Notes: generated by a model from the letters alone, not told the origin. A stretch of DNA of 64,000 bases from Pseudomonadota bacterium (GCA_029779535.1 JAKPAG010000117.1:1818-65817); one strand, 5' to 3'. Positions 11,578 to 29,035 are shown, counted from the first letter of the stretch. Made by a program: numbers and translations.

Positions 11578-11993
11578 TCGGCCTGCGGCACCGCGGCCAG
11601 CACCCGGCGCAGGCCCGCCATGGCCTTGTCGCCGGCGGCCCTGGCCAGTTCCGCCTCAAGGTCGCGCAGCACGCCCGACGCCGCCTCGCGGATCGGGCCG
11701 CCGGCGCTGGCAAAGCCGACCCGCTGGGCGCGGCGATCATCCGGGTCGGGCAGGGTTTCGACGAGGCCAGCCTCGGCCATTTCGCCGAGCAGCTGGCTCA
11801 TCGCCTGGCGCGACACCCCCAGGTTCGCGGCGATGTGCGACGGGCGGACCACGCCATTGGCGATATTCGCCAGGACCAGCGATTGCGAGCGGGTGATCCC
11901 CGGCCAGCCGCGCTGCGCCAGCCGCGCGCGCAGCTGTTCGTCAAACCAGTAGAAGGCGCGCATCAGGTCCAGGATCAGCAGCGGATTGTCCAT
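11574..11993 (-). CDS. MarR family transcriptional regulator
   Basis: SHIAANLGVSRQAMSQLL...DPDDRRAQRV winged helix. Confidence 0.85.
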   Translation of the reverse strand: MDNPLLILDLMRAFYWFDEQLRARLAQRGWPGITRSQSLVLANIANGVVRPSHIAANLGVSRQAMSQLLGEMAEAGLVETLPDPDDRRAQRVGFASAGGPIREAASGVLRDLEAELARAAGDKAMAGLRRVLAAVPQAD

Positions 11994-12056
11994 TGCCGCT
12001 CCTTTCCAGCCCGCCCCGCGCAGCGCAAGCGCGATTATCGCCCACCCCGTCGATAT

Positions 12057-12073
12057 AGTAAATCTACTTGACA
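12057..12073 (-). promoter_or_regulatory. Degenerate copy of the TGTCAA..TGACA operator in the marR/monooxygenase divergent promoter
   Basis: Minus strand TGTCAAGTAGATTTACT matches TGTCAATAATATTGACA at 12 of 17 positions and overlaps TTGACA. Confidence 0.45.
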
Positions 12074-12116
12074 TTTATTGCAGCCCGGAGGCAGACTTTC
12101 CGGCAACTGTACAAGC

Positions 12117-13316: not shown

Positions 13317-13341
13317 TCCGGGCGGGGCGCCCGCTGGCCGG

Positions 13342-14493
13342 TCAGACCAGCGGGTTGACCTGCGGCAGGCCCAGGCGCTGCCGCCCGGCGGCTTCGCGGC
13401 TGACATCCCAGTCCCAGAACGCGTGCGAACAGACCGTGTTGAGATCGCGCCAGATCCGCTGCAACGGCTGGTCCAGGTGATAGCTTGACGCCCCGGCGCT
13501 GGCCATCATCGCGTTGACCGTGTCGCGGCACAGCTTGGACACGTAAGCGGTCTTGCCCTTGGCCGCGACGCGGTCATCCAGGGTAAAATCGCGCACGCCC
13601 ATGGTCGCTTCGGCCGCATCGAACACGGTCCGGGCCAGATCGCTGGCGATCCTGCTGGCAATCTCCATTTCGCCCAGGGTGACATGGGCCATCTGCTGGT
13701 CGCGCACCACCGCGCCGCCGAAATTGCGCACCCGCCGCTCCACGCCCTGGCCGAAGGCTTCGAGCGCGCCTTTCAGGCTGCCGGTCAGCACCGGCAGGAT
13801 CGTGCAATAGGCCGAAATCAGGAAGGGAATCGAATAGAGCGGGTTGGGGTGCAGCTTCGACCCTGCGGTGACCCCGGCGTGGAACGCGATGGCATCGACC
13901 GCGTGGCGATCGGGCACGAACACCTTGCGTGCCTGGTAATCGTTGCTGCCGGTCCCGGCCATGCCGGCATAGTGCCAGTTGTCGATCACCTCGACCGCGC
14001 TGACCGGCATCAGGAACGAACGCCGTCCGTCCTCGGCCTGGCCGCTGATCTGCACCCAGTCGGCATGCATGATCCCCGATCCCCAGGCCGCCCGGCCGCT
14101 GACTTCCCAGCCGCCCGGCACCTTGACCGCGTGCATGTCGGCCGCCTGCGCCGCGGGCAGCAGGACATAGCCGCGCGGGCCCAGCAGTTCTTCCTGCGTT
14201 TCTTCGGGAAAGCGCGCCACATAGGTGTTGTGGGCGATGTAGAACGAGGCGATCCACCCGGTGGAGGGGCAGGCCGCGCTGATGATCTCGACCACGTCGA
14301 ACAGGGTCGACAGACTGACTTCGGACCCGCCGAACCGGCGCGGGACCAGCATCTGGATGATCTCCGCCTCGATCAGCTCGCGGATCGAATCGTCGTGCGG
14401 GCGGCGCAGCTCGGAAGTCTCGGCGGCGCGGGCCTTGATCGCGGGGGCGAGCGCGCGGGCGCGTTCGATCAGTTCCTCACGGGTTGCAGGCAT
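13342..14493 (-). CDS. ACAD-fold flavin-dependent monooxygenase, oxygenase subunit (HsaA-like)
   Basis: ACPSTGW, SGRAAWGSGIMHADW, WHYAGMAGTGSN and LQRIWRD...SH motifs. Confidence 0.8.
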   Translation of the reverse strand: MPATREELIERARALAPAIKARAAETSELRRPHDDSIRELIEAEIIQMLVPRRFGGSEVSLSTLFDVVEIISAACPSTGWIASFYIAHNTYVARFPEETQEELLGPRGYVLLPAAQAADMHAVKVPGGWEVSGRAAWGSGIMHADWVQISGQAEDGRRSFLMPVSAVEVIDNWHYAGMAGTGSNDYQARKVFVPDRHAVDAIAFHAGVTAGSKLHPNPLYSIPFLISAYCTILPVLTGSLKGALEAFGQGVERRVRNFGGAVVRDQQMAHVTLGEMEIASRIASDLARTVFDAAEATMGVRDFTLDDRVAAKGKTAYVSKLCRDTVNAMMASAGASSYHLDQPLQRIWRDLNTVCSHAFWDWDVSREAAGRQRLGLPQVNPLV

Positions 14494-14509
14494 GTCGGCT
14501 TTACTCCGC

Positions 14510-14941
14510 TCAGGCCAGGCCAGCCGCGGCCAGCGCGGCCTGGGCGACTTCCATGTCGTGGCTGTAGTGCCCGCCGCTGACCCCGATCCCGCCAACCATC
14601 ACGCCATCGACCTTGACCGGATAGCCGCCGCCGAACACCACCAGCCGGGGCGTGTGGACGATCCCATCGAGCAGCGGCGGATCGTTCTTGATGAAATCGT
14701 GCCATTCGTGCGTCGCCATGCCGAACGAAACGGCGGTATAGGCCTTGTCCTGCGCGATCTGCACCGACAGCAGCGGGGCATGATCCATCCGCCGGAACTG
14801 GACCAGCGTACCTGCCGGATCGCACAGCGCGATGCACATCGGCACCTGCATTTCCGACGCCTTGGCCATCGCCCCGGCCATCAGTTCATCGGCCAGCTCA
14901 TTGGACATGGTCTGCACGGTCAGGGTCTTGGCCACGATCAT
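14510..14941 (-). CDS. GlcG/HbpS-family (heme-binding-like) protein
   Basis: DPAG.LV.F.RMD.A...S...AQDKAYTAV and GGG.P...G...GGIGVSGG...D motifs. Confidence 0.8.
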   Translation of the reverse strand: MIVAKTLTVQTMSNELADELMAGAMAKASEMQVPMCIALCDPAGTLVQFRRMDHAPLLSVQIAQDKAYTAVSFGMATHEWHDFIKNDPPLLDGIVHTPRLVVFGGGYPVKVDGVMVGGIGVSGGHYSHDMEVAQAALAAAGLA

Positions 14942-14958
14942 CTTCCCCCTTGGGCATT

Positions 14959-14975
14959 AGTCAATTTAGGTGACA
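14959..14975. promoter_or_regulatory. Third GTCAA..TGACA operator copy, in the glcG/CoA ligase divergent promoter
   Basis: AGTCAATTTAGGTGACA keeps both palindromic ends (11 of 17 matches to the 8167 site). Confidence 0.5.
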
Positions 14976-15077
14976 ATCACGACAAGCGCCGCACGTGTCA
15001 ATCGTTAGCACGCAAAGCACTTGCCTTGGCGCGCGGCCTGCCCGAACGTGGGCTCGGAACTGGAGAGTGACCCGACC

Positions 15078-16625
15078 GTGAGCGCCATTGATCCCTATGC
15101 CGACAAGGATGTCCCCTGGTTGCTGCGCAGCCATGCCGAAACGCGCGGCGACGCGGTGTTCTTGGCCTGGGAACCGTTCGAGGATGACCCCGGCGAATGG
15201 ACCTACGGCCAGTTCCACGCCGAAGTGCGCGATCTGGCTGCGGCCCTGCGCGCTCGCGGGCTGGCGCGCGGCGACAAGCTGCTGATCCACGCCGGCAACA
15301 GCCCCGAATTCCTGCTGGCCTGGTATGCCTGCGCCATGCTGGGCGTGGTGGCGGTCACCACCAACCCGCGCTGCGCGGCCGCCGAAGTCGCCTATTTCAT
15401 CCAGCATTCCGGGGCGCGCGCGGCAATCGTGGAAAGCACATACCTGGGCCTGATTGCGCAAACCGGCGCGCGGCTGGAATGGATCGCCGCCTTCCCCGCC
15501 GATGGCGACCGCGCAGCCCTGCCCGCCGGGATCGTCCCCTTTGCCAGCCTGCGCGGCGATGGCGCGGCGCTGGTGGCCGAGCCGCTGGAGGCGATGACCC
15601 CTCTGTCGGTGCAATATACCTCGGGCACCACCAGCCGGCCCAAGGGCGTGGTCTGGACCCATGCCAACGCGCTGTGGGCCGGGCAGATCGGCGCGGCGCA
15701 CAACCAGCTGCGCAGCGATGACGTATCGCTGGTGTTCACCCCGCTGTGCCATGCCAACGCGATGAGCTGGGGCCACCTGCCGATGCTGTGGACCGGCGGC
15801 AAGGTAGTGCTGCAACCGCGCTTTTCCGCCAGCCGGTTCTGGCCGGTGGCGCTGAAGCATGGCTGCACCTGGGGCAATGTCATCCCCTTTGCGATCCAGG
15901 CGATCGCCGAGCAGGCGGTGCCGCAGCACAGCTTTCGCCAGTGGGTCGTCGGCGCGGCGGGCCTGGGCGGGCTGGACAAGCACTTCCGCGTCGCCATCCT
16001 GGGCGCCTGGGGGATGACCGAGACGGTCACCCACGGCACTTTCACCCCGCCGCAGTTGCCTGCGCCCGACCGCTCGATCGGCCTGCCCGCCCCCGAATAC
16101 GAAGTGAAGATCGTGGACGAACAGGGCGCGCCGGTGAAGGTGGGCGAGACCGGCCTGCTCAAGATCCGGGGCACGCGCGGACGGGCGCTGTTCCTGGAAT
16201 ACCTCGACGATCCGGCCGCCACCGCCGCCAGTTTCGACATCGATGGCTGGTTCGATACCGGCGACCGGGTCTACCAGGTCGAGCAGGGCCACCTGCGCTT
16301 TGCCGACCGGGCCAAGGACATGCTCAAGATCGGCGCAGAAAACGTCGCCGCATCCGAAATCGAAGCGGTGATCGCCATGGTGCCCGGCGTGCTGGAAGCC
16401 GCCGTGGTCGGCCGTCCGCACCCGATGCTCGACGAGGAGCCGGTTGCCTTTGTCCGCGCCGCCGCCCCCTCGCCTGACTTGGCCGACGCGATCCTGGCGG
16501 CCTGCCGCGCGCAGCTGGCCGGCTTCAAGGTGCCCGCCGCAGTGCGCTTCATGGAGGAATTCCCGCGTTCGGAACTGAACAAGGTATCGAAGAAGGACCT
16601 GCGCGAGCTGGCCCGCGAGGGCTGA
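15078..16625 (+). CDS. AMP-dependent CoA ligase (CaiC-like)
   Basis: YTSGTTSRPKGV, GAWGMTET, WFDTGD and DRAKDMLKIGAENV motifs; probable GTG start at 15078. Confidence 0.85.
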   Translation: MSAIDPYADKDVPWLLRSHAETRGDAVFLAWEPFEDDPGEWTYGQFHAEVRDLAAALRARGLARGDKLLIHAGNSPEFLLAWYACAMLGVVAVTTNPRCAAAEVAYFIQHSGARAAIVESTYLGLIAQTGARLEWIAAFPADGDRAALPAGIVPFASLRGDGAALVAEPLEAMTPLSVQYTSGTTSRPKGVVWTHANALWAGQIGAAHNQLRSDDVSLVFTPLCHANAMSWGHLPMLWTGGKVVLQPRFSASRFWPVALKHGCTWGNVIPFAIQAIAEQAVPQHSFRQWVVGAAGLGGLDKHFRVAILGAWGMTETVTHGTFTPPQLPAPDRSIGLPAPEYEVKIVDEQGAPVKVGETGLLKIRGTRGRALFLEYLDDPAATAASFDIDGWFDTGDRVYQVEQGHLRFADRAKDMLKIGAENVAASEIEAVIAMVPGVLEAAVVGRPHPMLDEEPVAFVRAAAPSPDLADAILAACRAQLAGFKVPAAVRFMEEFPRSELNKVSKKDLRELAREG

Positions 16626-16709
16626 GGCGGCGCAATCCGGCTTTGACAAACGGCCCGCAAGCCAGCAACCGGGTTGCGATACGAAACCGGATTCGCCGGA
16701 CCATAGAGG

Positions 16710-17876
16710 ATGATCATGCGCCAGTTCACCGAAGACCAGATCATGTTCCGCGATGCCTATCGCAAGTTCCTCGACGCGGAGATTGCCCCGCACATGGAAG
16801 CATGGCGCGAAGCCGGGATCGTCGATCGCAGCGCCTTCAGGAAGGCCGGTGACCTTGGCTTCCTGATGATCTGGCCGGACGAGAAGTATGGCGGGATGGG
16901 CGACACCGACTTCCGCTATGAACAGATCATCATCGAGGAAACCTGCCGTGCCGGGGCCAAGCAGTTCTACAACACGCTGCACAGCCGCCTGGTCGGCCCC
17001 TATTTCCAGCGCTTCGGGACCGAGGAACAGCGCATGCGCTTCCTGCCCAAATGCGTTTCGGGCGAGACGATCCTGGCCATCGCGATGACCGAGCCGGGCG
17101 CCGGATCGGACCTGGCGGGGATGCGCACCAATGCCCAGGACATGGGCGATCACTGGCTGCTCAACGGGTCAAAGACCTACATCTCGAACGGGATCAACGC
17201 CGACGTGGTGATCGTCGCCGCCAAGGTGGCCGGCGCGGACAAGAAGCACGCCATGGTGCTGCTGATCGTCGAACGCGGGATGGAAGGGTTCGAACGCGGC
17301 CGCAACCTCAAGAAGATGGGCATGCCCGCGCAGGACACCGCCGAACTGTTCTTCAACAACGTCAAGGTGCCCAAGGCCAACCAGCTTGGCGAGGCCGGCA
17401 AGGGGTTCTACTACCTGATGGAAGGGCTGGCGGAAGAACGGCTGATTTCCGCCGTCGGCTGCGCCGCCAACGCCCGCAAGGCGTTCGACATCACCCGCGA
17501 TTACGTCAGCCAGCGCCAGCTGTTCGGCCAGCCCCTGTCCGAACAGCAGAACACCCAGTTCCGCATGGCCGAAATGGACACCGAGATCGAGCTGGCGCAG
17601 GTCTATATCGACCACTGCGTTACCATGCATAACCAGGGCATGCTGACCAGCAACATGGGCGCCAAGGCCAAGATGGTCGCCAGCGAGGTCGAATGGAAGA
17701 TGCTGGACCTGGGCGTCCAACTGCATGGCGGGGCCGGGTTCATGGACGAATACCCGATCAGCCGGATGTTCAGCGATGCGCGCATCAACCGCATTCTGGC
17801 CGGATCGAGCGAAGTGATGCGCCTGATCATCGGCCGCGACGTGTTCTCGCAGAAGTACCAGAGCCTGTTCGACTAG
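16710..17876 (+). CDS. Acyl-CoA dehydrogenase (LCAD-like)
   Basis: IAMTEPGAGSDL, NGSKTYISNG, QLHGGAGFMDEY and ILAGSSE motifs. Confidence 0.9.
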   Translation: MIMRQFTEDQIMFRDAYRKFLDAEIAPHMEAWREAGIVDRSAFRKAGDLGFLMIWPDEKYGGMGDTDFRYEQIIIEETCRAGAKQFYNTLHSRLVGPYFQRFGTEEQRMRFLPKCVSGETILAIAMTEPGAGSDLAGMRTNAQDMGDHWLLNGSKTYISNGINADVVIVAAKVAGADKKHAMVLLIVERGMEGFERGRNLKKMGMPAQDTAELFFNNVKVPKANQLGEAGKGFYYLMEGLAEERLISAVGCAANARKAFDITRDYVSQRQLFGQPLSEQQNTQFRMAEMDTEIELAQVYIDHCVTMHNQGMLTSNMGAKAKMVASEVEWKMLDLGVQLHGGAGFMDEYPISRMFSDARINRILAGSSEVMRLIIGRDVFSQKYQSLFD

Positions 17877-17958: not shown

Positions 17959-17974
17959 TGTGACACGAATCACC
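17959..17974. promoter_or_regulatory. CRP-type binding site upstream of the Crp-cyclase operon
   Basis: TGTGA-CACGAA-TCACC, one mismatch from TGTGA-N6-TCACA, in an AT-rich intergenic region. Confidence 0.6.
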
Positions 17975-18089
17975 GCTTGGCCCTAGAAAAGATTCGAAGG
18001 GCCTGTTCGGGGTGGGCCTGGGTCCAACGGGGGACTTCTAGATGCACGGTTCTGGTTCGCCAGGCACTGGGCAAGGCGCCAGTCGGATC

Positions 18090-18737
18090 ATGCCGCCACG
18101 CTTGCAGGACGCTTTCCTGACCCGTGGGCGCGAGGTTGCCTTCAGCCGCAAGCAGGTGATCATGACCGAAGGTGCCGAGGATACCGACGTCTACCTGCTG
18201 ATCACCGAGCGTCTGCAATTCTCGCTGCTGTCACCCCAGGGGCGCGAAGTGATCCTGCGCGAGATGGGGCCGGGCGAAATGTTCGGCGAATTGTCCGCGA
18301 TCGACGGCCTGCCGCGTTCCACCAATGTCATGGCGCTGGAAGACAGCCGCCTCGCGCAGATGAACGCGGCTGCTTTTGCCGCCATGCTGGGCGAAGTGCC
18401 CGACGCCGGGCTGTGGGTGGCGCGGCAGCTGGTCCAGCGCATCCGCAACCTGACCGACCGCGCATTCGAGCTGGCGACTCTGCCGGTCGCCAGCCGGGTC
18501 CAGGCCGAACTGCTACGGCTGGCACGCGAAGCCGCGGCGCCCGGGGCCGACGCGATCGAAATCCGCCCCATGCCGACCCATGCCGATCTGGCCGCGCGGG
18601 TCGGCACCAGCCGCGAGGCGGTGTCGCGCGAACTGGGCCTGCTGGCGCAGCAAGGGCTGCTGGCGCAAAGCGGCCGGACCCTGCGGATCGGTTCGATCAC
18701 GGCCTTGCGCGCGGTCTATGAACGAATGCTGCGATGA
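18090..18737 (+). CDS. Crp/Fnr family regulator with an intact cNMP-binding cassette
   Basis: FGELSAIDGLPRSTNV phosphate-binding cassette; HTH GTSREAVSR with the CRP R-E-x3-R recognition residues. Confidence 0.9.
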   Translation: MPPRLQDAFLTRGREVAFSRKQVIMTEGAEDTDVYLLITERLQFSLLSPQGREVILREMGPGEMFGELSAIDGLPRSTNVMALEDSRLAQMNAAAFAAMLGEVPDAGLWVARQLVQRIRNLTDRAFELATLPVASRVQAELLRLAREAAAPGADAIEIRPMPTHADLAARVGTSREAVSRELGLLAQQGLLAQSGRTLRIGSITALRAVYERMLR

Positions 18738-21631
18738 GCCTGGTCAACCAACGTCATCACCTTGTCCTGCTGTTCACTGACCTGACCGACTCCACCCGCA
18801 TCACCGCGGACATGGAGCCGGAAGACTATGCCGACCTGCTCAGCCGCCTGCGCGAAATCACCAACCGGATCATCGCCCACCACGGCGGCGAGGTGGTGCG
18901 GATCGACGGCGACGGCGCGCTGTGCATCTTCGGCTATCCCCTGGCCCACGAGGATGCCGGCCGCCGCGCGACCGAAGCGGCGCTGGACCTGCATGCCGCC
19001 ATGGCCGAACTCGACGGGCTTTACGCGCCGGGGCTGAAGCTGCGGCTGCACAGCGGGATCCACGCAGGGGTGGTGCTGCTGCGCAGCGGCGACCTGGTGC
19101 GCGGGCGCTATGAAGTGCTGGGCGATGCCACCAATGTCGCCGCGCGGCTGTGCGATGCCTCCAGCCCGAATGGCCTGCTGGTCAGCGCCGAAACGCTGGG
19201 CGCGGATGCCAATTTCTTCGTCACCGGCCAGCCGCAGGTGCTGGGGCTGGGCGGACGACGCAAATCGGTCCAGGCCTTGCCGGTGCTGGGGCGCAGCGAT
19301 ACCGCCACCCGCTTTGCCGCGCGCACCCGCCAGCGGCAGACCCCGCTGACCGGGCGCGATGGCCAGCGCGCCGCGATTGCAGACTGGCTGAATGGCGGGC
19401 CGGACACGCCCGCCACCCTGTTGCTGCACGGCCCGGCGGGGATCGGCAAGAGCCGCCTGCTGGCGCAGGTCGCCAGCGATGCGCGGGCGCGCGGCTGGCG
19501 GCTGGCGCGCGGCTATTGCGAGGCTTATCTTGCGGCGCGGCCGCTCCAGCCGTTCCTGCAGATCGCGGCCGAACTGTCCGGCGGCGATGCGGCCGACCTG
19601 CCGGCGGTAACCGGCCCGATCGGCGCCGAAGTGGCCCGCGCCGCGCACGGCACCCCGCTGCTGGTCATGATCGACGACTGGCAGTGGGCCGACGATGCCA
19701 GCCGCGACCAATTGGCCGCACTGCTGGCCGCCGCCCCGGCGGGCCGGCTGCGCGTACTGCTCGCCTCGCGCGAGGGCGATGCGGCGCTGCCCGATGGCGC
19801 GGCGCAAATACGGGTCGAACTGCCCCCACTGGACGAGGCCGCCGCCCACGCCGCGATCGCCGCGCTGCTGGGCACGCAGGAACCGGGCGTGATCGCCCGG
19901 ATCGCCGAAGCGGCCGGCGGCAGCCCCCTGCTGCTCGAGGAATTGTGCCTGGCCCAGGCCAGCCGCGCCGCCACGCCCAGCGGCGAAGCGCGCGGCGCAT
20001 GGTTCGACCTGGCGGTGCAGGCGCGCTTTGCCGCCCTGCCCCCGGCCGATGCCGCGATGCTGCGCCAGGCGGCGATCATCGGCCATATCGTGCCGGCCTG
20101 GCTGCTGGCCGCGATCCAGGGCGAAGCAATCGGCGCGGCGATGCTTGACCGGCTGGCCGAAGCCGATTTCCTCTACCCCGGCGAAACCGGCAGCACGCTG
20201 AGCTTCAAGCACGGGCTGACCCGCGACGCGGTCTATGCCGGGATCGACCTGGCGCTGCGGCGCGACCTGCACTGCCGCGTGCTGGACGTGCTGGAAAGCC
20301 GCGCGCAGCAGGTCGGGGAAAGCGGGCTGCTCGATGCGCTGGCCTATCACGGCGCGGCGGCCGGGCAGGCCGACAAGGCGCGCGACTATGCCGTGCGGGC
20401 GGGCGATGCGGCGCTGGCGGCCGGCGCGCTTGACCGCGCCCAGGCGCACTACCGCGCCGCCTTCGACTGGGTCGAGGCCATGCCCGAAGGCGAGCAGCGC
20501 GCCGCGCTGGGCTGGTCGCTGCTCAACAAGTTCGGGCTGGCCAGCATCGTCGATCCGGCGCTGGAACAGCTGCCAGTGCTGGAACGGGCCGCAGCATTGC
20601 TGGCAGGCAGCGGCGATCCTGCGGCGCGGGTGCGCAGCGCCTACTGGCTGGGGGCGATTGCCTATGGCCTGGGGCTGGGCCAGCGCTCGGTCGAGCACCT
20701 GAGCGCCGCGCGGCGTATCGCGCTGGAATCGAATGACGAGCGTTTCATCCACCAGATCGAGGTCAAGCTGGCCCAGTCGCTGACCGCTGTGGGCCGCTAT
20801 GCCGAGGCGGCCGCGCTGTTCGACGAGGTGCTGCCCCGCTTTGACGGTCTGCGCGGGCGCAACAACCAGGAAACGCTGATCTATGCCTTGTGCTGCCGGG
20901 GCTTCATGCTGGGCGACCAGGGCCACATGGCCGCTGCCGAAGCCCTGTACACCCAGGCCGAAACCCGCGATCCCGAAGCGCTGACCACCATGCGCCCGTC
21001 GCTGTTGACGCAGAAGGCGGCGCTGCGGCTGTGGCAGGCCGACTGGGCCGGGGCCGAGGCGCTGGCCCAGGCGGCCTTGCAGGACTGCACCCGCACCCGC
21101 ACCCGCTATCTGGCGATGATGAGCCACGCGCTGGCCGCCTTCGCCCGCTGGCGCAGCGGCGGCGGCGAGGCCGAAATAGCCCGGATGGAAGACACCGCGC
21201 ACTGGTTCAAGAGCCACGGCAACAGCCGCCAGCGCACTTCGCTGGTGTTCGGCTGGCTGACCGAGATGATGGTCGCGCAAGGCGATGCCCCGGCGGCGCG
21301 GCGCTATGCCGGAATGATGGTCCAGCGCATCCGCGAAGGCGGCGACCGGCTGGGCGAGGCGATGGCCTGGCGCGCGTTGGCCCGGCTGGAGCTGCGCCGC
21401 GCCCGGCCCGAACGCGCCGACCACTACCTGCGCCTGGCCGATGCATCGGCCCACTACCGCGCGAGCCCGCGCGAATGGGCGGGCAACCGGCTGTGCGCCG
21501 CGCGGCTGGCCAGCGCCCGGGGCGACGCCCAGCGCGCCGCCAAGGAAGCACGGCAGGCTGCCGACACCTATGCCACGCTGGGCATGGAAGGCTTCAGGCA
21601 GCGGGCGGCGGCACTGGCTCCCAATCGCTGA
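18734..21631 (+). CDS. Class III nucleotidyl cyclase - STAND (AAA_16-like) ATPase - TPR-like protein
   Basis: LFTDLTDST, DGDG and GDATNVAARL cyclase motifs; Walker A GPAGIGKS, Walker B MIDD; helical C-terminus; ATGA overlap with crp. Confidence 0.85.
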   Translation: MSLVNQRHHLVLLFTDLTDSTRITADMEPEDYADLLSRLREITNRIIAHHGGEVVRIDGDGALCIFGYPLAHEDAGRRATEAALDLHAAMAELDGLYAPGLKLRLHSGIHAGVVLLRSGDLVRGRYEVLGDATNVAARLCDASSPNGLLVSAETLGADANFFVTGQPQVLGLGGRRKSVQALPVLGRSDTATRFAARTRQRQTPLTGRDGQRAAIADWLNGGPDTPATLLLHGPAGIGKSRLLAQVASDARARGWRLARGYCEAYLAARPLQPFLQIAAELSGGDAADLPAVTGPIGAEVARAAHGTPLLVMIDDWQWADDASRDQLAALLAAAPAGRLRVLLASREGDAALPDGAAQIRVELPPLDEAAAHAAIAALLGTQEPGVIARIAEAAGGSPLLLEELCLAQASRAATPSGEARGAWFDLAVQARFAALPPADAAMLRQAAIIGHIVPAWLLAAIQGEAIGAAMLDRLAEADFLYPGETGSTLSFKHGLTRDAVYAGIDLALRRDLHCRVLDVLESRAQQVGESGLLDALAYHGAAAGQADKARDYAVRAGDAALAAGALDRAQAHYRAAFDWVEAMPEGEQRAALGWSLLNKFGLASIVDPALEQLPVLERAAALLAGSGDPAARVRSAYWLGAIAYGLGLGQRSVEHLSAARRIALESNDERFIHQIEVKLAQSLTAVGRYAEAAALFDEVLPRFDGLRGRNNQETLIYALCCRGFMLGDQGHMAAAEALYTQAETRDPEALTTMRPSLLTQKAALRLWQADWAGAEALAQAALQDCTRTRTRYLAMMSHALAAFARWRSGGGEAEIARMEDTAHWFKSHGNSRQRTSLVFGWLTEMMVAQGDAPAARRYAGMMVQRIREGGDRLGEAMAWRALARLELRRARPERADHYLRLADASAHYRASPREWAGNRLCAARLASARGDAQRAAKEARQAADTYATLGMEGFRQRAAALAPNR

Positions 21632-24600
21632 GCCGCACGATCAGCGCGGCGGGCATGGCCTGAATCGTCCCGGCATCAAGCAGCGCCGCCATGATCCCCA
21701 TGATCGCGCCGAAGGCCATGTTCTGCGCCGGGCAGGCATGGACCGGATAGGGCGCCGCGCTGTCCACCTGGTCGGCCGCCTGGCGCTTGCCGCCGAACAC
21801 GATCGACACGTCGCCATCGGGCATGTCCGGATCGAACAGCGAGCGCTGCGAGGCCGAGACCTGGCTGACCACTACCAGGTCGCCCTCGCGCACCTGGATA
21901 TCGCGGCGGTGCGGGCAGGCCGGGGTGGGGGGATCGACCGCGATCGTCGCCGCGCGCTGGGCGGTGCGATAGAGCAGGTCGGGCGCGGGGCGCACGCACA
22001 TGGCCTGCGACACCGGGCTTTTCAACGCGCCGATCGCTTCGGCCACGGCCGTGCCCGCTGGCCGCCCGCCGGTGGCCCGCTTCAGCGCGGACTGGTGCCG
22101 CCACAGCGACTTTTCCCCCAGCCATTCGGCCAGGATCCCGCGCAGGTTGCCGTCCATCGGCGGGATCGCGCCAACCATGGTGCCAACCAGGTTGCGGGCC
22201 AGCACTTCATCATCCGCAATCGCGCCGAACATCGCCGCCGCGACCGAACCCTGCGGCACGCTGCCCGCCGCGCGGTGCTCGGCCACGAAAGCGCGCGCCG
22301 CGGCCAGGATCGCCTTGCCGTGGTTGTCGGCAAATTCGGTCACTTCGGGGCTGGGCCGGGGATAGAAGGCATTGCGCGATGGCGAGAGGAAGTCCCCCGG
22401 ACAGTGCGCCTTGTCGCGCCCGGGCGCGGCCGGATCAGCGCCATATGCGCCGTCCCCGTCCAGCCGCACCGGCTGCCATGACCAGCCGCCCAGCGCCATG
22501 TGCAGGTCGTCCGGCAGGCCGTACCACAGCTTGCACAGCACCCCCAGCGCGGGCAGCAGGTACTGGCGGCGCAGTTCCAGCTTGAAGGCCGTGCGCCCCA
22601 GTGCCTGGACCCGCAGCTTCATTTCCTTGAGCACCGCCGATCCCGCCGCGTAACCGGCGCGGAACCCGTCAGCCTCGCCATAGTGCAGCAGGATCGCGTT
22701 GGTCGCGGTGGCATCGCTGCGATAGTTCAGCCCCAGCGCGTTCAGCGCCGGGTTGTTGTAGGCATCGTCCGGCTGCTGGGTGACGAAGATCGGCCCGCTG
22801 TTGGTGTGGATGCGGCGCAGCTGCTCCTCGCTGGAGAAAGTGCGCCAGTCGGCCAGCACGGCGGCAACCTGGTCGCGCCCGGCAACCAGCACCACGTTCT
22901 GGCTGGCCCGGTCGGGATTGGCCCAGTCATAGCCATGCCCGAAGCTGCCCTCGCCCTCGCCGGCCGGTTCATCGCCCGGTTCATCGGTCAGGTTCAGCGC
23001 ATCAGGCACGGCGATCCCGCCCGGCAGCTTCGGTCCCCGCCGCAGGTTGAGCGCGCCGCCATAGAAATAACGGATCGCCGACCACATGTCGGGGGTCACA
23101 TCGCGTTCGGCCGGGTCCTTGGTGACGAAATCCTCGAGCAGCCGCTTCCATTCCTTGGCGGCCTCGGCCGCGGGCAGGGCCTCGACCCGCTCGATCACCG
23201 CGCGGCCGCGCACGTCTTCCAGGAACTTGCGCATCAGCCGGAACCGGCCCTGGATCCGCGCCAGCCGGTCCAGCGCGCGGCGCGACGGCACGAACAGGTA
23301 GAGCCCCCAGTGCAGCGGGGTGAACGGGTGGCGGCCGGGTTCCGATCCGCCGGTCAGCCCCGGCGCGGGCGTGAAGGCCGGCAGCGGCACGCGCACCACC
23401 TGCGGCTGGCCGGCAGCATCGCTGGCGATGAACTGGAACAGGCCCGGCGGATCCTTGGGCAGCACGCCGGTCAGCGGATCGTTGTTGGCGGCGGCCTGGT
23501 CGGTGCTGTTGCCGCCGTTCAGCCAGCGCTGGATCACCTCGTACTGTTCGGCGATGCTGGCGTTGTAGGCCATGAACATCAGACCGGCCTTGTCCGGCCC
23601 GTCCTGGCGGTGGCCGAACAGCATCGCCCGGCGCAGCAGGCGCGGGGTGGGCCGGTCGAATTCGGCGCGGGTCAGCGTCTCGTCCTGGCTGAGCGGGGGC
23701 ACGTTGCCACCCGGCACGATGCGGCGCGGATTGGCGCGGCGGATGTGCGCCGCGAACGGACACTGCCGCCCCGCCCCGTCCTGGCCATAGTCGAAATCGT
23801 TGAGGCCGCCGGCATCGGGCCGGGCCAGCGGGCGCCCCGCCTCGTCGCGCCCCATCACCGCCGCCTTGAGCAGCGCTCGCGCCGCGGCAGCATCGATCCC
23901 CAGCTGCGCCGCGATCGGCGCGGCCGACTGGTCCAGCCAGGCATCGAAGCGCGCCACATCCTCGCCGATCTTGCGCACCACCAGGAAGGTGCCGTTCAGT
24001 TGCAGCTCGCGCGCTTCCTGGCGCGGCCTGCGGCGCCAGTCGTCCAGCGTGACGAATGGCGCGGGCGCGCTGTCGCCGCGGTCGTTGCCATAGCCCAGCA
24101 GCACTTCGCCGGGCCGCACCCGGTCGCGGTCCAGCACGGCAGCGGAATTGTCGCCGATCCCCGGCAGGCGCGGGCGTGGCTGGCTGATCCCGTCGAGATA
24201 GCCGAAGTGATCGCGGAAATAGCCGTCGCCTTCGCCATGCGCGCCGGTCAGCCATTCGACCGCTTCAAGGCTGGCGCCCTGCCCCGCCAGCGTGGCCAGC
24301 CGCCGCGCCTCGACCTCGAGCACGGCGCGCTCGGCCGCACTCGTGCGCAACTGGACGACGATGTCCACCTCGCGCAGTTCGACGCGCGGCAGGCGCGTGC
24401 CAAGCGGCACCGCCCCGGTCAGCGCCGGGCCGTTGCGTTCGGGCAGGATCCAGTTGCGCGGATGGTTCTCGCGCTGGTCGCCCAGGAGCCCGCTGCGCTG
24501 CTCCATCCCCTCGCGGAATTCCTTGGGGAAGCAATCGACCACGTCATAGTCCAGCCCCAGCCGCAGCAGGCCGTCGGGCGTGAAGCCGACCGTGCGATAG

Positions 24601-25760
24601 ATCCCGTCCGCCGGCGTGCTGCCCGGCCCGGCGGCGAAATGCGGATCGAGCGCGGCAATGAAGTCGCGCGCGCGGCCCGCATCGCGGATCGTGAACAGCA
24701 GCAGCGCGCCGTGCTGAACCGGCTGCGCCGCGCTGCCCTGGGCTTTCAGGATCCCGCCCTGCACTTCGCCCAGCTCGAATGGCGGATCGGGCAGGCGGCG
24801 GGCTTCCAGTTCGGCGTCAAGCCGCGCAAGGTAGCGCTTGCCGCTGGTGTACCAGGCCAGCGGTTCGGCATAGACCGCCTGGGCCCGCGTCCACACCTGC
24901 CTGAGCGGGTGCGCTTCCGGCAGGGCCTCGACCCCGGCGATGAAGTGGTCCCAGCCAAGCAGGATGTCGCCTGCCGCGCGGACCAGCCGGTGCCCTTCGT
25001 TAAGCCGCTCGCGCCCGTCGGGATCGGTGCCCGCGGGCCGCCCGGTCAGCCATTCGGGCGGGTAGAAATCGGCCAGCTTGTAGATCACGTTGAGCGCTTC
25101 GAGCCCGAGTTCGAGCGTCTTGGGCGCATGCTGCCGGCGCGTTTCGGTGGCGGCGGGTTCGGGATAGAGCATCCGCGCGCTGGCCAGTTGCAGATCGTCC
25201 GCGCCTTCGCGCTGCAGCCGCTCCAGCCGCGACAGGTACTTCTGGTCCCGCGTCGACAGGCCGGTGGTGTTGTAGAAGATCGCGCTGTCCATCTGGTTGT
25301 CGCGCACCCATTGCAGGTATTCCTCGCAGGAATGCTCGGTCGCGGTGACATAGCCGTCGCAGTTGCAGAACAGGAGGTCGAGGAACGGCCCGAGCGGCTT
25401 CCAGATCAGCCGCATGTAGGGTTCCCACCCGCCCTCGAAAGTGGCGGTGAGATAGAGGTAGCGGCGGCTGCCCAGCGCCAGTTCGCCCGGGGCCAGCCGG
25501 GACAGGCCGAACAGGTCCTTGTCCAGCACCCCCACCCGGAAGTCGAGCAGGTTGAGGATGCGTTCGGTCACGTCGGAATAGGGCACCACCCGCTCGTATT
25601 CGCGCGCCGCAACGCGGATCCGGTTGAGCGCTTCGGCCACCAGCTTCAATCGGCTGGCATAGGTGATGTTCTCGTAAGCCTGGATGAAGCCATCCTTGAT
25701 CGGGGCGATCACCACCAGGTCGGTGATCCCGTCGATATGCTTGGAAGTAACCTCGTCCAT
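21594..25760 (-). CDS. Multidomain heme protein: uncharacterised N-domain + DyP-type peroxidase + atypical cytochrome P450-like domain
   Basis: DyP motifs GYLDG (24189-24203), NGTFLVVRK, CPFAAHIRRANPR (His near 23745) and LLRR; C-terminal VFGG...HACPAQNMA heme-thiolate-like motif (21726-21740). The start at MDEVT is inferred. Confidence 0.75.
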   Translation of the reverse strand: MDEVTSKHIDGITDLVVIAPIKDGFIQAYENITYASRLKLVAEALNRIRVAAREYERVVPYSDVTERILNLLDFRVGVLDKDLFGLSRLAPGELALGSRRYLYLTATFEGGWEPYMRLIWKPLGPFLDLLFCNCDGYVTATEHSCEEYLQWVRDNQMDSAIFYNTTGLSTRDQKYLSRLERLQREGADDLQLASARMLYPEPAATETRRQHAPKTLELGLEALNVIYKLADFYPPEWLTGRPAGTDPDGRERLNEGHRLVRAAGDILLGWDHFIAGVEALPEAHPLRQVWTRAQAVYAEPLAWYTSGKRYLARLDAELEARRLPDPPFELGEVQGGILKAQGSAAQPVQHGALLLFTIRDAGRARDFIAALDPHFAAGPGSTPADGIYRTVGFTPDGLLRLGLDYDVVDCFPKEFREGMEQRSGLLGDQRENHPRNWILPERNGPALTGAVPLGTRLPRVELREVDIVVQLRTSAAERAVLEVEARRLATLAGQGASLEAVEWLTGAHGEGDGYFRDHFGYLDGISQPRPRLPGIGDNSAAVLDRDRVRPGEVLLGYGNDRGDSAPAPFVTLDDWRRRPRQEARELQLNGTFLVVRKIGEDVARFDAWLDQSAAPIAAQLGIDAAAARALLKAAVMGRDEAGRPLARPDAGGLNDFDYGQDGAGRQCPFAAHIRRANPRRIVPGGNVPPLSQDETLTRAEFDRPTPRLLRRAMLFGHRQDGPDKAGLMFMAYNASIAEQYEVIQRWLNGGNSTDQAAANNDPLTGVLPKDPPGLFQFIASDAAGQPQVVRVPLPAFTPAPGLTGGSEPGRHPFTPLHWGLYLFVPSRRALDRLARIQGRFRLMRKFLEDVRGRAVIERVEALPAAEAAKEWKRLLEDFVTKDPAERDVTPDMWSAIRYFYGGALNLRRGPKLPGGIAVPDALNLTDEPGDEPAGEGEGSFGHGYDWANPDRASQNVVLVAGRDQVAAVLADWRTFSSEEQLRRIHTNSGPIFVTQQPDDAYNNPALNALGLNYRSDATATNAILLHYGEADGFRAGYAAGSAVLKEMKLRVQALGRTAFKLELRRQYLLPALGVLCKLWYGLPDDLHMALGGWSWQPVRLDGDGAYGADPAAPGRDKAHCPGDFLSPSRNAFYPRPSPEVTEFADNHGKAILAAARAFVAEHRAAGSVPQGSVAAAMFGAIADDEVLARNLVGTMVGAIPPMDGNLRGILAEWLGEKSLWRHQSALKRATGGRPAGTAVAEAIGALKSPVSQAMCVRPAPDLLYRTAQRAATIAVDPPTPACPHRRDIQVREGDLVVVSQVSASQRSLFDPDMPDGDVSIVFGGKRQAADQVDSAAPYPVHACPAQNMAFGAIMGIMAALLDAGTIQAMPAALIVRLSDWEPVPPPAA

Positions 25761-25841
25761 GATCGTGCCCCTGTGCCCCCTGCGCGATTCGCCGCCGGGA
25801 TGCCTGTTTTGAGCCCTATTGGCAGCGCGGGGTAAGGCGTC

Positions 25842-25857
25842 TGTGCGAAATTCCACA
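25842..25857. promoter_or_regulatory. Second CRP-like site, upstream of the DyP-P450 gene
   Basis: TGTGC-GAAATT-CCACA, within the palindrome CTGTG-N8-CACAG; two mismatches from the CRP consensus. Confidence 0.45.
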
Positions 25858-25913: not shown

Positions 25914-26360
25914 ATGATCCATTCCTACATCTACCAGATGGGTGACAGTTCGCGCCTGCTGCGCCGCGCCTTCGATGCGCGGATGCGGCAGCTGGGCGTT
26001 ACCGGACCGCAGGCGCGCCTGCTGCTGGAACTGTCCAAGGCCGAGGGTGAGAACCAGGGCCACTATGCCGAACGGCTCGAGGTTGAGCCGATCACCCTGT
26101 GCCGCATGGTCGACCGGATGGAGGAATCCGGCCTGCTGGAACGCCGCCGCGATCCGGCTGACCGGCGCGCCTGGCGGGTTCACCTGACGCCGCGCAGCCG
26201 GATCATGATCGACCGCCTGCGCGAAGGCGTGGCCCAGCTGGAACAGGACATGCTGGCCGGGCTGGACGACAGCGCCCGCGAGCAATTCTCGCAAGTGATG
26301 GACATGATCCGCGCCAACCTTGCCCAACCCCTTGATACGGAGCTGGCCGACCATGGCTGA
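25914..26360 (+). CDS. MarR family regulator of the efflux pump
   Basis: TGPQARLL...LEVEPITLCRMVDRMEESGLLERRRDPADRRAWRV. Confidence 0.85.
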   Translation: MIHSYIYQMGDSSRLLRRAFDARMRQLGVTGPQARLLLELSKAEGENQGHYAERLEVEPITLCRMVDRMEESGLLERRRDPADRRAWRVHLTPRSRIMIDRLREGVAQLEQDMLAGLDDSAREQFSQVMDMIRANLAQPLDTELADHG

Positions 26361-27429
26361 GGCCGACCCCACCTTTGCCGACACCCGCGAGGACACCGCC
26401 ACCCCGCCGCCGCCCCACCCGGCCCGGCGACTGGGGCGGCTGGCCGCGATGCTGTCGGTCCCGCTGCTGGTGCTGGTTGCCGGCGCGTTCTACTGGTTCA
26501 GCCTGCAAGGCCAGGTTTCGACCGACAACGCCTATGTCAAGCAGGACAAGGTTTCGGTCAGCGCCGAAATCAGCGGCCGCATCGTCGAAGTGATCGGGCG
26601 CGAAAACATGCAGGTCAAGGCCGGTGACCTGCTGTTCCGGATCGATCCCGAACCCTACCAACTGCAGATCCAGCAAGCCAATGCCGCGATTGCCGCGGCC
26701 CAGGCCAGCCAGGTCGCGCTGGCCAATGCCAGCCCGCTGTCGGGCGCGGACATCTCATCGGCCCAGGAAAGCATCGCCTTTGCCCGGTCAAACCTGGCGC
26801 GGCAGGAAGCGCTGTGGAAGCGCGGCTTTGCCACCAAGGCCGCCTATGACGCCGCCCTGCACGCCGTTTCCCAGGCCGAGGAAGCCCTGCGCCTGGCCGA
26901 AGCCAAGCGCGACGAAGCCGCGGCCAAGCTGGCGACCGGGGCGCAGGTCCCCGGCATGTTCCCCCAGGAAGCCCAGGCCCGCGCCCAGCGCGCCGCCGCC
27001 GAGCTGAACCTGCGCCGCACCGAAGTGCGCGCGCCGATTGCCGGCCGGCTGAGCCAGGCGACCCGCCTGCAGATCGGCCAGGACGCGATCGTCGGCCTGC
27101 CGCTGGTGACGATTGTGGCCACCAGTTCCAGCTATGTCGAAGCGAACTTCAAGGAAACCGACCTCAACCAGATGCAGGTCGGCCAGCCGGCCGAGGTGCG
27201 CTTCGATGCCTATCCCAATCTCAGGCTGAAGGGCCACGTCGCCTCGATCGGTGCGGGCACGGGCAGCGAATTCTCGGTCCTGCCGGCGCAGAACGCCACC
27301 GGCAACTGGGTCAAGGTAACCCAGCGCGTGCCGGTGCGGATCGCGCTGGACGAAGCCAGTCCGCGGGTGCTGATCGCGGGCCTGTCGGCCAAGGTGAAGG
27401 TCTTCACCGCCAACGCCAAGCGCGACTAA
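26353..27429 (+). CDS. HlyD/EmrA-family membrane fusion protein
   Basis: N-terminal TM, STDNAYV, ANFKET and [17 protein letters not shown] motifs. Confidence 0.9.
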
Positions 27430-27436
27430 CGCCGCC

Positions 27437-29035
27437 GTGGCCAGCGTCCCAGCCAATTCTCCGCGCGGCCGCAGCGTGGCGGCCATGCCGCAGCTCGACC
27501 CGGCCGATGTGCCCGCGCTGGCGTGCGACAACTATCGCCTGCTGATCTTCGGGATCATGCTGGCGGCGCTGCTCCAGATCCTCGATTCGACCATCGCCAA
27601 TGTCGCCATCCCGCACATGCAAAGCTCGCTGGGGGCTACGGCGGATACGATCAACTGGGTGCTGACCAGCTATATCGTGGCTTCGGCGGTGGCCATGCCG
27701 ATCACCGGCTGGCTGGCCGAACGGATCGGCGCGCGGCGCCTGTTCATCGGTTCGGTCGCAGCGTTCATCGTCGCCTCGATGCTGTGCGGCGCGGCCCAGA
27801 ATCTGACCCAGATGGTGCTGTTCCGCGCGCTCCAGGGTGTCGCCGGCGCGTTCATCGCCCCCCTCAGCCAGAGCGCGATGATCGACGTCACCCGTCCCAG
27901 CCGCCAGGCGCAGATCATGTCGCTGTGGGGCATGGGGGTGATGATCGGCCCGATCTTCGGCCCGATCCTGGGCGGCTGGCTGACCGAGAACTGGTCGTGG
28001 CGCTGGGTGTTCTACGTCAACCTGCCGCTGGGCATCATCTCCCTGGTCATCATGATGGCGGAGCTGCCCGGGCGCGAGGCCGCCGCGCGCAAGTTCGACC
28101 TGACCGGCTTCTCGCTGGTCGGCATCGCACTCGCCTCGGTCCAGCTGATGCTTGACCGCGGCAACCACGTGGACTGGTTCGATTCGATCGAAACCTGGAT
28201 CTACCTGGGCGTCGCCCTGTCGACCACCTGGATGGCGATCATCCACCTGGCCACGGCCGAACAACCGATCTTCCGCCAGGAACTGATCTACGATCCCAAC
28301 TTCCTGCTGGCACTGGCCTTCATGATCGTGGTCGGCGTGGTGATGATGGCCACCATCGCGCTGCTGCCGCCGATGTTGCAGCACCTGTTCAACTATTCGG
28401 TGATCGACACCGGCATGACGCTGATGCCGCGCGGGGTGGGCACGCTGATCTCGATGCAGCTATCGGGCATCCTGGTGCGGCGCGGGTTCGATGCGCGCGT
28501 GCTGGTGGCCAGCGGCTTTGCCTTCGCGGGCACATCGCTGTGGATGATGTCGGGCTGGTCGCTGGATGTCGATTACTGGAACATCATTGTTTCGGGCTTC
28601 ATCCAGGGTCTGGGCATGGGCATGGTGTTCATCCCGATCAACGCCAGCGCCTTTGCCACGCTGCCGCCGCAGCTGCGCACCGAAGGGGCCAGCCTGCTCA
28701 ACCTGTTCCGTTCGATCGGCGCTTCGGTCGGCATCTCGGTGGTGTCGACCCTGCTGGCGCGCAACATCCAGGTGGCACACCAGGACCTCGCCTCGCACAT
28801 GAATTCGGCCTCGGTCGCGGGGCTGGATTTCAGCACCGCCGACCGCTTCCAGGCGCTGGGCGACGTCGCGATGCGCATGGCCGACGGCGTGGTCAACCGC
28901 GAGGCGGCGATGATCGCCTATGTCGACGATTTCTATGCGATGATGTGGGTAACGCTGGCCGCGATCCCGCTGTGCATCCTGCTGCGCCCGCCGCAGACCA
29001 AGGGGATGCCGCAGCAGCCGGTCAGCGATCACTGA
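27437..29035 (+). CDS. DHA2/EmrB-family 14-TM MFS efflux transporter
   Basis: QILDSTIANVAIP, WVLTSY, RALQG and WRWVFYVNLP motifs. Confidence 0.9.
   Translation: MASVPANSPRGRSVAAMPQLDPADVPALACDNYRLLIFGIMLAALLQILDSTIANVAIPHMQSSLGATADTINWVLTSYIVASAVAMPITGWLAERIGARRLFIGSVAAFIVASMLCGAAQNLTQMVLFRALQGVAGAFIAPLSQSAMIDVTRPSRQAQIMSLWGMGVMIGPIFGPILGGWLTENWSWRWVFYVNLPLGIISLVIMMAELPGREAAARKFDLTGFSLVGIALASVQLMLDRGNHVDWFDSIETWIYLGVALSTTWMAIIHLATAEQPIFRQELIYDPNFLLALAFMIVVGVVMMATIALLPPMLQHLFNYSVIDTGMTLMPRGVGTLISMQLSGILVRRGFDARVLVASGFAFAGTSLWMMSGWSLDVDYWNIIVSGFIQGLGMGMVFIPINASAFATLPPQLRTEGASLLNLFRSIGASVGISVVSTLLARNIQVAHQDLASHMNSASVAGLDFSTADRFQALGDVAMRMADGVVNREAAMIAYVDDFYAMMWVTLAAIPLCILLRPPQTKGMPQQPVSDH

Follow-up and report, generated by a model that had tools for sequence, protein, structure and literature searches.

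A conserved gene module joining a CRP-type regulator and a STAND-type class III cyclase to a large, predicted two-heme enzyme

The gene trio described here lies in a 64,000-nucleotide stretch of DNA from a Pseudomonadota bacterium (GCA_029779535.1 JAKPAG010000117.1:1818-65817), referred to below as the window, with positions counted from its first letter. The trio comprises crp, which codes for a regulator of the CRP type, a gene for a class III nucleotide cyclase joined to a STAND-type NTPase and a TPR-like region, and a large gene for an enzyme predicted to carry two heme domains. The crp gene occupies 18042..18737 on the + strand and encodes 231 amino acids (aa); gene callers favour a start at ATG 18090, which gives 215 aa. 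The cyclase-STAND-TPR gene follows on the + strand (18734..21631, 965 aa), its start codon overlapping the crp stop codon in an ATGA at 18734-18737. On the - strand, the enzyme gene (21594..25760, 1388 aa) converges on the cyclase gene, and the two overlap tail to tail by 38 bp (21594-21631), a segment bounded by their two stop codons. The initial annotation had reported the ATGA coupling, the convergence with its 38-bp overlap, and boxes upstream of both crp and the enzyme gene, and all of these are present, the boxes at 17959-17974 and 25842-25857. ATG 25760 as the start of the enzyme gene is backed by the conserved N-terminus of its orthologues. The alternative ATG 25883, which would open a 1429-aa open reading frame (ORF), was ruled out because orthologue conservation starts at MDEVTSK. 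In RefSeq, as for the copy on Sphingopyxis plasmid pDB-1, the three products carry only the generic names ‘Dyp-type peroxidase domain-containing protein’, ‘AAA family ATPase’ and ‘Crp/Fnr family transcriptional regulator’.

Sixty genome loci encoding relatives of the 1388-aa protein were searched for the other two genes. A cyclase-STAND gene is found directly downstream of the enzyme gene, and convergent with it, in 46 loci, which is nearly every one with enough downstream sequence. Carriers of the pair belong to Sphingomonadales, Caulobacterales, Hyphomonadaceae, Rhizobiaceae, Bradyrhizobium, Sneathiella, Sulfitobacter, Betaproteobacteria and Myxococcales/Polyangiales, thus spanning Alpha-, Beta- and Deltaproteobacteria/Myxococcota, and the surrounding genes vary. 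The stop codons of the pair overlap in 32 of the 46 loci and lie within 100 bp of each other in 42. A crp gene is adjacent in 37 of the pair loci, being upstream of the cyclase gene on the same strand in 24 (often with a 4-bp or 1-bp overlap), divergent from the cyclase gene in 9, upstream of the enzyme gene in 3, and elsewhere in the locus in 1. Because the crp linkage survives such rearrangement, a functional linkage can be argued. The association also holds in the reverse direction, as 3/3 sampled cyclase homologues that were picked apart from the listed enzyme loci sit in a trio of crp, cyclase gene and convergent enzyme gene; this sample was drawn from the top 120 cyclase homologues, many of which seemingly come from loci already in the enzyme list. 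All-against-all ORF clustering across the loci gave no other widely conserved neighbour. Co-occurrence of the three genes in other genomes had been named beforehand as the test on which the proposal could fall, and the counts for the pair and for adjacent crp come down in its favour. The trio is a real, conserved and unannotated module, with a CRP wiring that is supported by comparative genomics.

The box upstream of crp (17959-17974, TGTGACACGAATCACC) agrees with the consensus at 9 of 10 positions, is centred 75 bp upstream of ATG 18042, and is the sole TGTGA-N6-TCAC site in the window. The second box (25842-25857, TGTGCGAAATTCCACA, reading TGTGGAATTTCGCACA on the strand of the enzyme gene) is centred 89.5 bp upstream of the enzyme ATG and 64.5 bp upstream of the ATG of a divergent marR gene. 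This sequence had been described as a CTGTG-N8-CACAG box about 90 bp upstream of the enzyme gene; it is indeed present there, though a 16-bp CRP-type box that matches the consensus at 8 of 10 positions is the better reading. Only three sites in the window reach at least 8/10 against TGTGA-N6-TCACA, two of them being the crp and enzyme boxes. The third, at 27393-27408 (GGTGAAGGTCTTCACC), falls inside coding sequence where emrA and emrB meet and is probably due to chance. At least one match was seen in 8/100 shuffles for the crp box and in 44/100 for the enzyme box, so that neither is beyond chance within a single window. The significance of the boxes comes from their conservation across loci and not from the window alone.

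Conservation of the enzyme box was scored as the best TGTGA-N6-TCACA match within 300 bp upstream, with random 310-bp windows from the same loci as controls. A match of at least 8/10 was obtained in 37/57 loci (5.5% of controls) and one of at least 9/10 in 22/57 (1.6% of controls). In 29/57 loci the box starts at -130 to -70, a typical sequence being TGTGATTTTTCGCACA. The crp box reaches at least 9/10 in 18/35 loci, compared with 1.6% of random 310-bp windows. In total, 56 sites of at least 9/10 were located in 1.11 Mb of locus sequence, and 41 of these are upstream of crp or the enzyme gene. Strong boxes also occur in loci without an adjacent crp (10/10 in L042, a Bradyrhizobium, and in L054, and 9/10 in L057), and several beta- and deltaproteobacterial loci are at background. 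The enzyme box, which recurs some 90-115 bp ahead of its gene, keeps its position when the neighbouring gene is a co-directional CoA-transferase gene and not marR (L002/L003, L009, L010). Because the box stays when the upstream neighbour changes, we assign it to the enzyme gene and not to marR-emrAB; the initial annotation had likewise taken it to serve the enzyme gene, while noting that regulation of the divergent marR-emrAB from this site would count against the scheme. A terminator scan gave nothing at either promoter region. Judged in silico only, the boxes are conserved candidate operators of CRP.

The crp upstream regions hold further conserved sequence, namely an extra ‘CACA’ half-site 8-12 nt before the box and a ‘t.ggca.t’ element directly after it (L006, L008, L014, L016, L019, L022, L025, L027, L028, L035 and L037). 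Both are absent from the enzyme box. These additions on the crp side suggest tandem or overlapping sites, or a promoter element.

Mobile elements accompany the module at some loci. It is carried by the mobilizable 200-kb plasmid pDB-1 of Sphingopyxis sp. DBS4 (L070, NZ_CP102385.1 35643-52069), where the enzyme gene is truncated (aa ~504-1380 are left) and lies directly downstream of a Tn3-family transposase gene. An IS66 element is located beside the module in L068 (14119-16477). In both L070 and L068 crp is flanked by DUF1353 and S8 peptidase genes. Within a metagenome-assembled genome (MAG) of Phenylobacterium zucineum (L016, 10001-17030), the enzyme gene and the cyclase gene each appear split into two ORFs or high-scoring segment pairs, which reflects either decay of the module or an assembly/frameshift error.

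A four-gene set, divergent from crp and sharing the box-bearing spacer with it, was observed in at least 7 loci (L006 at 11112-14987, L012, L014, L019, L022, L025 and L035) and is likely present in L069 (549-6094). It codes for a membrane protein of ~380 aa with no Pfam match, an HlyD-type membrane-fusion protein, an ABC ATPase and a protein of ~296 aa with a weak methyltransferase match. This set may be an exporter for the product of the module.

The crp product was analyzed using Pfam, where cNMP_binding scored 65.2 bits (cut-off 27.5; 5.5e-18) and HTH_Crp_2 scored 46.5 bits (cut-off 27; 3.6e-12). It had been proposed to keep both the cassette that binds cyclic nucleoside monophosphates (cNMP) and the DNA-reading R-E-x3-R residues. 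The window protein contains the cassette G-E...R-S (FGEL...PRS) as FGELSAIDGLPRS and R-E-x3-R as SREAVSR in the recognition helix, and fGEl.Aid..pRsa and REav.R are kept in 38 orthologues, which bears out the proposal. The nearest solved structures are Mycobacterium tuberculosis CRP, Corynebacterium glutamicum GlxR, Sinorhizobium meliloti Clr and Escherichia coli CAP. By its domains, its cassette and the conserved candidate operators, the protein is assigned to the CRP/FNR family of cNMP-dependent transcription factors.

In the 965-aa protein, a class III cyclase domain covers aa 9-155 (Pfam Guanylate_cyc, 51.2 bits, cut-off 21.9) and an AAA_16/STAND NTPase domain covers aa 205-341 (Pfam AAA_16, 73.6 bits). 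The C-terminal region is TPR-like; TPR_12 falls below the cut-off in the window protein (21 vs 30.1), and TPR_12 or TPR_MalT is annotated in many orthologues. nSTAND5 and NACHT gave weak matches, and NCBIfam returned generic or sub-threshold names only. A Walker A motif (GPAGIGKS) and a Walker B motif (LLVMIDDW) were read from the sequence, and the Walker motifs are conserved. By its AAA_16 match, its Walker A/B motifs and its repeat region, the fused NTPase classifies as STAND type. The metal-binding residues D16 and D60 of the cyclase are each kept in 42/46 orthologues, and the transition-state residues N134 and R138 in 44/46 and 38/46, respectively. The cyclase therefore looks catalytically competent.

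The positions that specify the cyclase substrate were set by alignment to Cya2 (2w01; E/G), its engineered E->K variant (6fht) and Rv1625c (4p2f; K/D), and correspond to R56 and E127. The best PDB match of the cyclase is the guanylate cyclase Cya2, in which Glu stands at the position of R56 and Gly at that of E127. Among the 46 orthologues position 56 is Arg in 35, Gln in 5 and Lys in none, and position 127 is Glu in 35 and Asp in 6. The pair R56/E127 satisfies neither the adenylate cyclase rule (Lys with Asp or Thr) nor the guanylate cyclase rule (Glu with Cys or Gly), and because Arg/Glu fits neither, the nucleotide product is not predictable from these residues. With this pair, the nucleotide specificity of the cassette may be an unusual one.

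The 1388-aa protein was modelled in two parts, aa 1-840 and aa 801-1388. Three domains were identified, the first of which (aa 1-340; 24741..25760, - strand) is specific to the family and confidently modelled, with a predicted beta-alpha-beta4-alpha arrangement followed by helices. Neither Pfam nor a PDB profile search gave anything meaningful for it, and the fold search covered it as part of aa 1-840, where the DyP part dominated the match list. It matches 483 of 1.84 billion representative proteins, nearly always at the N-terminus of proteins of 1150-1450 aa. The enzyme family as a whole comprises ~480 representative clusters at 50% identity. Homologues with 62% coverage (e.g. one labelled ‘Pseudonocardia’) were considered as carriers of a different architecture, which was rejected as BLAST had split the alignment.

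The second domain (aa ~345-835; 23256..24728, - strand) is a DyP-type peroxidase of class C/D-like type by sequence and fold. PDB sequence searches reached 3e-17 with phmmer and 2e-46 with a profile, and Dyp_perox_C in Pfam scored 22.4 bits (cut-off 20). With Foldseek, the model matched 8re3 (Deinococcus DyP) at 5e-27 with a TM-score of 0.77 normalised to the target, followed by DyP2 and AnaPX. The catalytic residues, D523 of GXXDG, the proximal His672 and the distal Arg710, are invariant in sets of 27 and 77 sequences. Sequence and predicted fold together confirm the DyP identity that had been claimed for this part of the protein, and the catalytic residues are intact.

The third domain (aa ~835-1388; 21597..23258, - strand) has a P450 fold in its AlphaFold2 model, which was built on 71 homologues and has a predicted local distance difference test score (pLDDT) of 90.3. 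When the model was compared with the PDB using Foldseek, all 50 matches listed were P450s, with 1347 matches at E <= 0.001 overall. Matches such as P450 BM3, CYP204A3 and CYP97C1 have a probability of 1.0 at 11-15% identity, E ~1e-10 and TM-scores normalised to the target of 0.54-0.60. An invariant H1341-A-C1343 precedes the predicted L-helix (helix 1346-1361). By sequence, neither the Pfam p450 model (PF00067) nor any P450 in the PDB profile search was matched at E <= 10. The canonical FxxGxRxCxG motif is interrupted, reading FGGKR, then 14 residues, then HACPA. Because Pfam p450 is absent and the 14-residue insert separates FGGxR from the Cys, binding of heme by this domain is something that we infer. 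The predicted I-helix (LARNLVGTMVGAIPPMDGNLRG), assigned by position only, has no obvious (D/E)-T pair, and the clustering of ORFs from the loci gave no conserved ferredoxin or reductase gene near the module. The initial annotation had called the protein a DyP-P450 enzyme, which stands for the DyP part by sequence and fold and for the P450 part by predicted fold, but not for the P450 part by sequence. As read from sequence and models, the protein is a DyP joined to a cryptic P450 and to a third, N-terminal domain of its own family.

Some members of the enzyme family carry additional domains. A C-terminal GDSL/SGNH acyl-hydrolase domain is present in L042 (Bradyrhizobium retamae), L054 and L039 (a betaproteobacterium), with Pfam values of 4e-9, 8e-9 and 5e-4, respectively. 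Three other family representatives contain an N-terminal patatin-like phospholipase domain (8e-17 to 3e-19). Because two unrelated lipase-type domains have been fused to opposite ends of the same core, a core that works on acyl chains freed from lipids or esters is hinted at, and the enzyme would most likely oxidise and rearrange fatty acyl chains of lipid origin.

Several known systems resemble parts of the module. Clr is a cAMP/cGMP receptor that belongs to CRP cluster G, and Rhodospirillum centenum CgrA is a related cGMP-activated regulator. In S. meliloti, the cyaD1-clr-smc02178 locus holds a class III cyclase, a CRP-like regulator and a target together (PMC4222275, PMC10127613), and the target promoter of Clr has a 16-bp palindrome whose centre lies ~68 bp ahead of the start codon, which places it at a class I distance from the transcription start (PMC4222275). 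The module shares the arrangement of local cyclase, CRP and target, and boxes of the type seen in the window are likewise 16-bp palindromes, centred ~80-110 bp upstream. However, the rhizobial cyclases are CHASE2 membrane receptors, while the cyclase of the module is a soluble cyclase-STAND-TPR protein. The Clr box is GTNNC-N4-GNNAC and that of the module TGTGA-N6-TCACA, and among solved structures the M. tuberculosis and C. glutamicum CRPs come before Clr as the nearest to the module CRP. Also unlike the Clr locus, the target is a three-domain two-heme enzyme and not smc02178, cyclase and target genes overlap tail to tail, and the module is conserved over three proteobacterial classes. The module is thus an instance of the local cyclase-CRP-target logic already known from S. 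meliloti Clr, with a novel enzyme family.

Multidomain cyclase-AAA_16 proteins are known from M. tuberculosis, where Rv0386, Rv1358 and Rv2488c have a LuxR-type helix-turn-helix (PMC2447327). These proteins and the TOMM kinase/cyclase fusion family TIGR03903 share with the module protein a cyclase, a STAND-like AAA_16 domain and helical repeats in the same order. The module protein differs from the Rv0386 group in having no C-terminal DNA-binding domain, a separate CRP being present instead, and in being tied to one particular neighbour gene. A further difference is its specificity pair, Arg/Glu. Rv0386 shares with it the use of non-canonical specificity residues (Gln/Asn).

Fungal dioxygenase-P450 fusions (linoleate diol synthases, Ppo, DOX-AOS/EAS) carry two hemes, and their P450s are self-sufficient (PMC13049297). 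In these fusions, as in the cascade from COX to PGIS/TXS, a peroxidase-type heme domain works with a C-terminal P450 that needs no redox partner, on fatty acids freed by lipases (PMC13049297, PMC4727417). The enzyme of the module similarly combines a heme peroxidase and a predicted C-terminal P450 in one chain, with no conserved reductase gene nearby and with lipase fusions in its family. However, its first heme domain is a DyP (dimeric alpha+beta barrel) and not of the animal-heme-peroxidase/COX fold, which is unrelated, its P450 is too divergent for Pfam, and it has an extra N-terminal domain of ~340 aa. The enzyme would therefore be an analogue of the fungal proteins in logic and not a homologue of the fusion. 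Literature searches returned no description of a DyP-P450 fusion, of this enzyme family, of a cyclase-STAND protein with a CRP, or of the cassette, and searches on bacterial patatin, DyP, P450 and oxylipins did not yield the module either.

From this material we propose, at a probability of about 0.6, that the module is a conserved second-messenger cassette that regulates itself and has a large cytoplasmic two-heme enzyme at its centre. What is observed is the linkage of the genes, the conservation of the boxes, the identities of the domains and the retention of catalytic residues. The soluble cyclase-STAND-TPR protein would be the sensor, and a ligand at its TPR/NTPase part would switch on the N-terminal class III cyclase, which would make a 3',5'-cyclic nucleotide. 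CRP, made from the same mRNA via the ATGA overlap, would bind that nucleotide and activate its own promoter, so that crp and the cyclase gene are positively autoregulated, and would also activate the promoter of the convergent enzyme gene. In the enzyme, one heme domain would make a hydroperoxide and the P450 would convert it, as in the fungal dioxygenase-P450 fusions.

A number of points weigh against this proposal. Ligand sensing, the nucleotide made, binding and activation by CRP, and the lipid chemistry are steps that we infer. A promoter scan found no sigma-70-like promoter at either promoter region. Given the Arg/Glu pair, neither cAMP nor cGMP can be assumed as the messenger. The P450 part fails the sequence signatures of its class, with the insert ahead of the Cys, and the N-terminal domain of the enzyme has no detectable relatives outside the family. 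SGNH and patatin hydrolases have broad substrate ranges, and the lipid reading is accordingly a hint only. Nine loci have the pair without an adjacent crp, several of them also without a box, and the patatin-fused L065 and L066 keep the convergent cyclase-STAND gene with neither crp nor box. Because loci lacking crp and boxes nevertheless keep cyclase and enzyme, the pair must be linked by more than CRP-driven transcription. The idea that the enzyme is a CRP-induced output is thus upheld by the conserved boxes but is incomplete, given those nine loci. Across the sampled loci, the universal unit appears to be enzyme plus cyclase, with CRP as a frequent but dispensable third part.

Because that universal unit is the enzyme-cyclase pair, the product of the enzyme could itself be the ligand of the STAND-TPR protein. 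The order of events would then be reversed: an oxidised lipid or small molecule made by the enzyme would be the signal sensed by the TPR-STAND part, the cNMP would report it to CRP or other receptors, and the boxes would provide feedback on the producer. It is the pair and not CRP that forms the invariant core, standing tail to tail without crp and boxes in L065, L066, L044 and L053, and the lipase-fused enzymes recall eukaryotic lipid-mediator cascades whose products are signals (PMC13049297). However, contact of the enzyme or its product with the TPR region is unsupported, and boxes upstream of both operons where crp is present suit the output model equally, so that we regard the reversed order as possible though rather unlikely. 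Another alternative dispenses with lipids. The STAND-TPR protein would sense an aromatic, lignin-derived or xenobiotic compound, which the DyP-P450 would degrade in substrate-inducible catabolism or detoxification. DyPs are known to oxidise dyes, lignin models and aromatics, and enzymes of this sort give the best structural matches; the hosts, which are sphingomonads, come from wastewater and sludge; and AAA_16-TPR sensors of the MalT type are ligand-triggered (by maltotriose in MalT), TPR_MalT being annotated in homologues. Yet conserved aromatic catabolic genes are not found near the module, the family has gained no domains other than acyl hydrolases of two unrelated types, the enzyme is a cytoplasmic protein, and the groups that keep the module differ widely in ecology, all of which makes a catabolic role doubtful.

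Defence had been among the outputs suggested earlier, together with oxylipin-like signalling; the latter gains support from the patatin and GDSL fusions, while the former is without positive evidence. If the module were an anti-phage or abortive infection system resembling Pycsar or bacterial NLRs, the STAND protein would sense a phage protein, the nucleotide would be an alarm, and the enzyme would damage the cell. Like Pycsar, the module has a class III-like cyclase together with a protein carrying a cNMP-binding domain; PycC models give weak matches to the cyclase domain, and the cNMP domain of the CRP matches sensor domains of Pycsar effectors. Defence systems commonly include STAND NTPases that carry N-terminal effector domains, and the module occurs on a plasmid and beside transposons. 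However, the PycC matches are generic and do not outscore the general class III model of Pfam, PADLOC has no match for the enzyme, and no relative was found in viral contigs. The receptor is a CRP with promoter boxes and not a TIR or transmembrane effector, and a transcription factor would be too slow and is atypical for abortive infection. Annotated flanking genes are metabolic, efflux or transposon genes, with no family beyond the trio widely conserved, and a defence role is accordingly improbable. Finally, the genes could be adjacent by accident, with CRP a general cAMP regulator and the boxes due to chance or membership of a large regulon. Each box is within chance expectation in the single window, and the regulator does resemble the global CRPs of M. 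tuberculosis and E. coli. Against this stand the linkage across three proteobacterial classes with shuffled gene order, the concentration of strong boxes upstream of the two genes (41/56 in 1.11 Mb), and the association in the reverse direction, which leave incidental adjacency strongly disfavoured and barely credible.

The second-messenger cassette that we favour brings together three genes that are co-inherited and uncharacterised. An output is known for few bacterial class III cyclases, and the cassette would be a compact example of a soluble STAND-type cyclase tied to a specific one. Its enzyme family joins two heme domains, one of them a predicted P450 that is invisible to sequence methods. 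The independent patatin and GDSL fusions lead to a concrete hypothesis on the substrate, in which the enzyme carries out lipid oxidation or chemistry of the oxylipin type in Alphaproteobacteria; if true, this would open the way to signals that bacteria derive from lipids and to heme biocatalysts that are new and self-sufficient. Carried further, the module could be a bacterial pathway for lipid mediators that is coupled to a cyclic nucleotide. A lipase activity, in some members fused to the enzyme, would free a fatty acid, the DyP and cryptic P450 would make an oxylipin-like product, the NLR-like Arg/Glu cyclase would sense or control that product with a possibly unusual nucleotide, and CRP would close a positive feedback. 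This extended version is speculative, and we hold it to be on the unlikely side; if true, it would be a prokaryotic counterpart of the cascade from phospholipase through peroxidase/dioxygenase to P450, coupled to second-messenger signalling.

The source of the window is Novosphingobium-like, a Novosphingobium MAG matching at 94% amino-acid identity, and the DNA is present in wastewater and sludge metagenomes. Fragments of the region found in wastewater ‘RNA-seq’ runs are unstranded contigs that extend evenly over genes and spacers and may include DNA, and are thus uninformative on expression.

Upstream of crp (15021-17876) the window contains an AMP-binding (acyl-CoA synthetase-like) gene and an acyl-CoA dehydrogenase gene, and beyond the enzyme gene (25914-29035) it contains marR and genes for HlyD/EmrA-like and MFS/EmrB-like efflux proteins. 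These flanks are retained in close Novosphingobium relatives only (L002, L005, L009, L010). An AMP-binding gene also adjoins the cyclase gene in L066. A 730-aa ORF at 14961..17153 on the - strand was considered as a gene and set aside as an antisense artefact, having no Pfam match and lying opposite the AMP-binding and acyl-CoA dehydrogenase genes. Spurious long antisense ORFs of this sort, typical of high-GC DNA, also shadow the enzyme and cyclase genes, and even cluster across loci.

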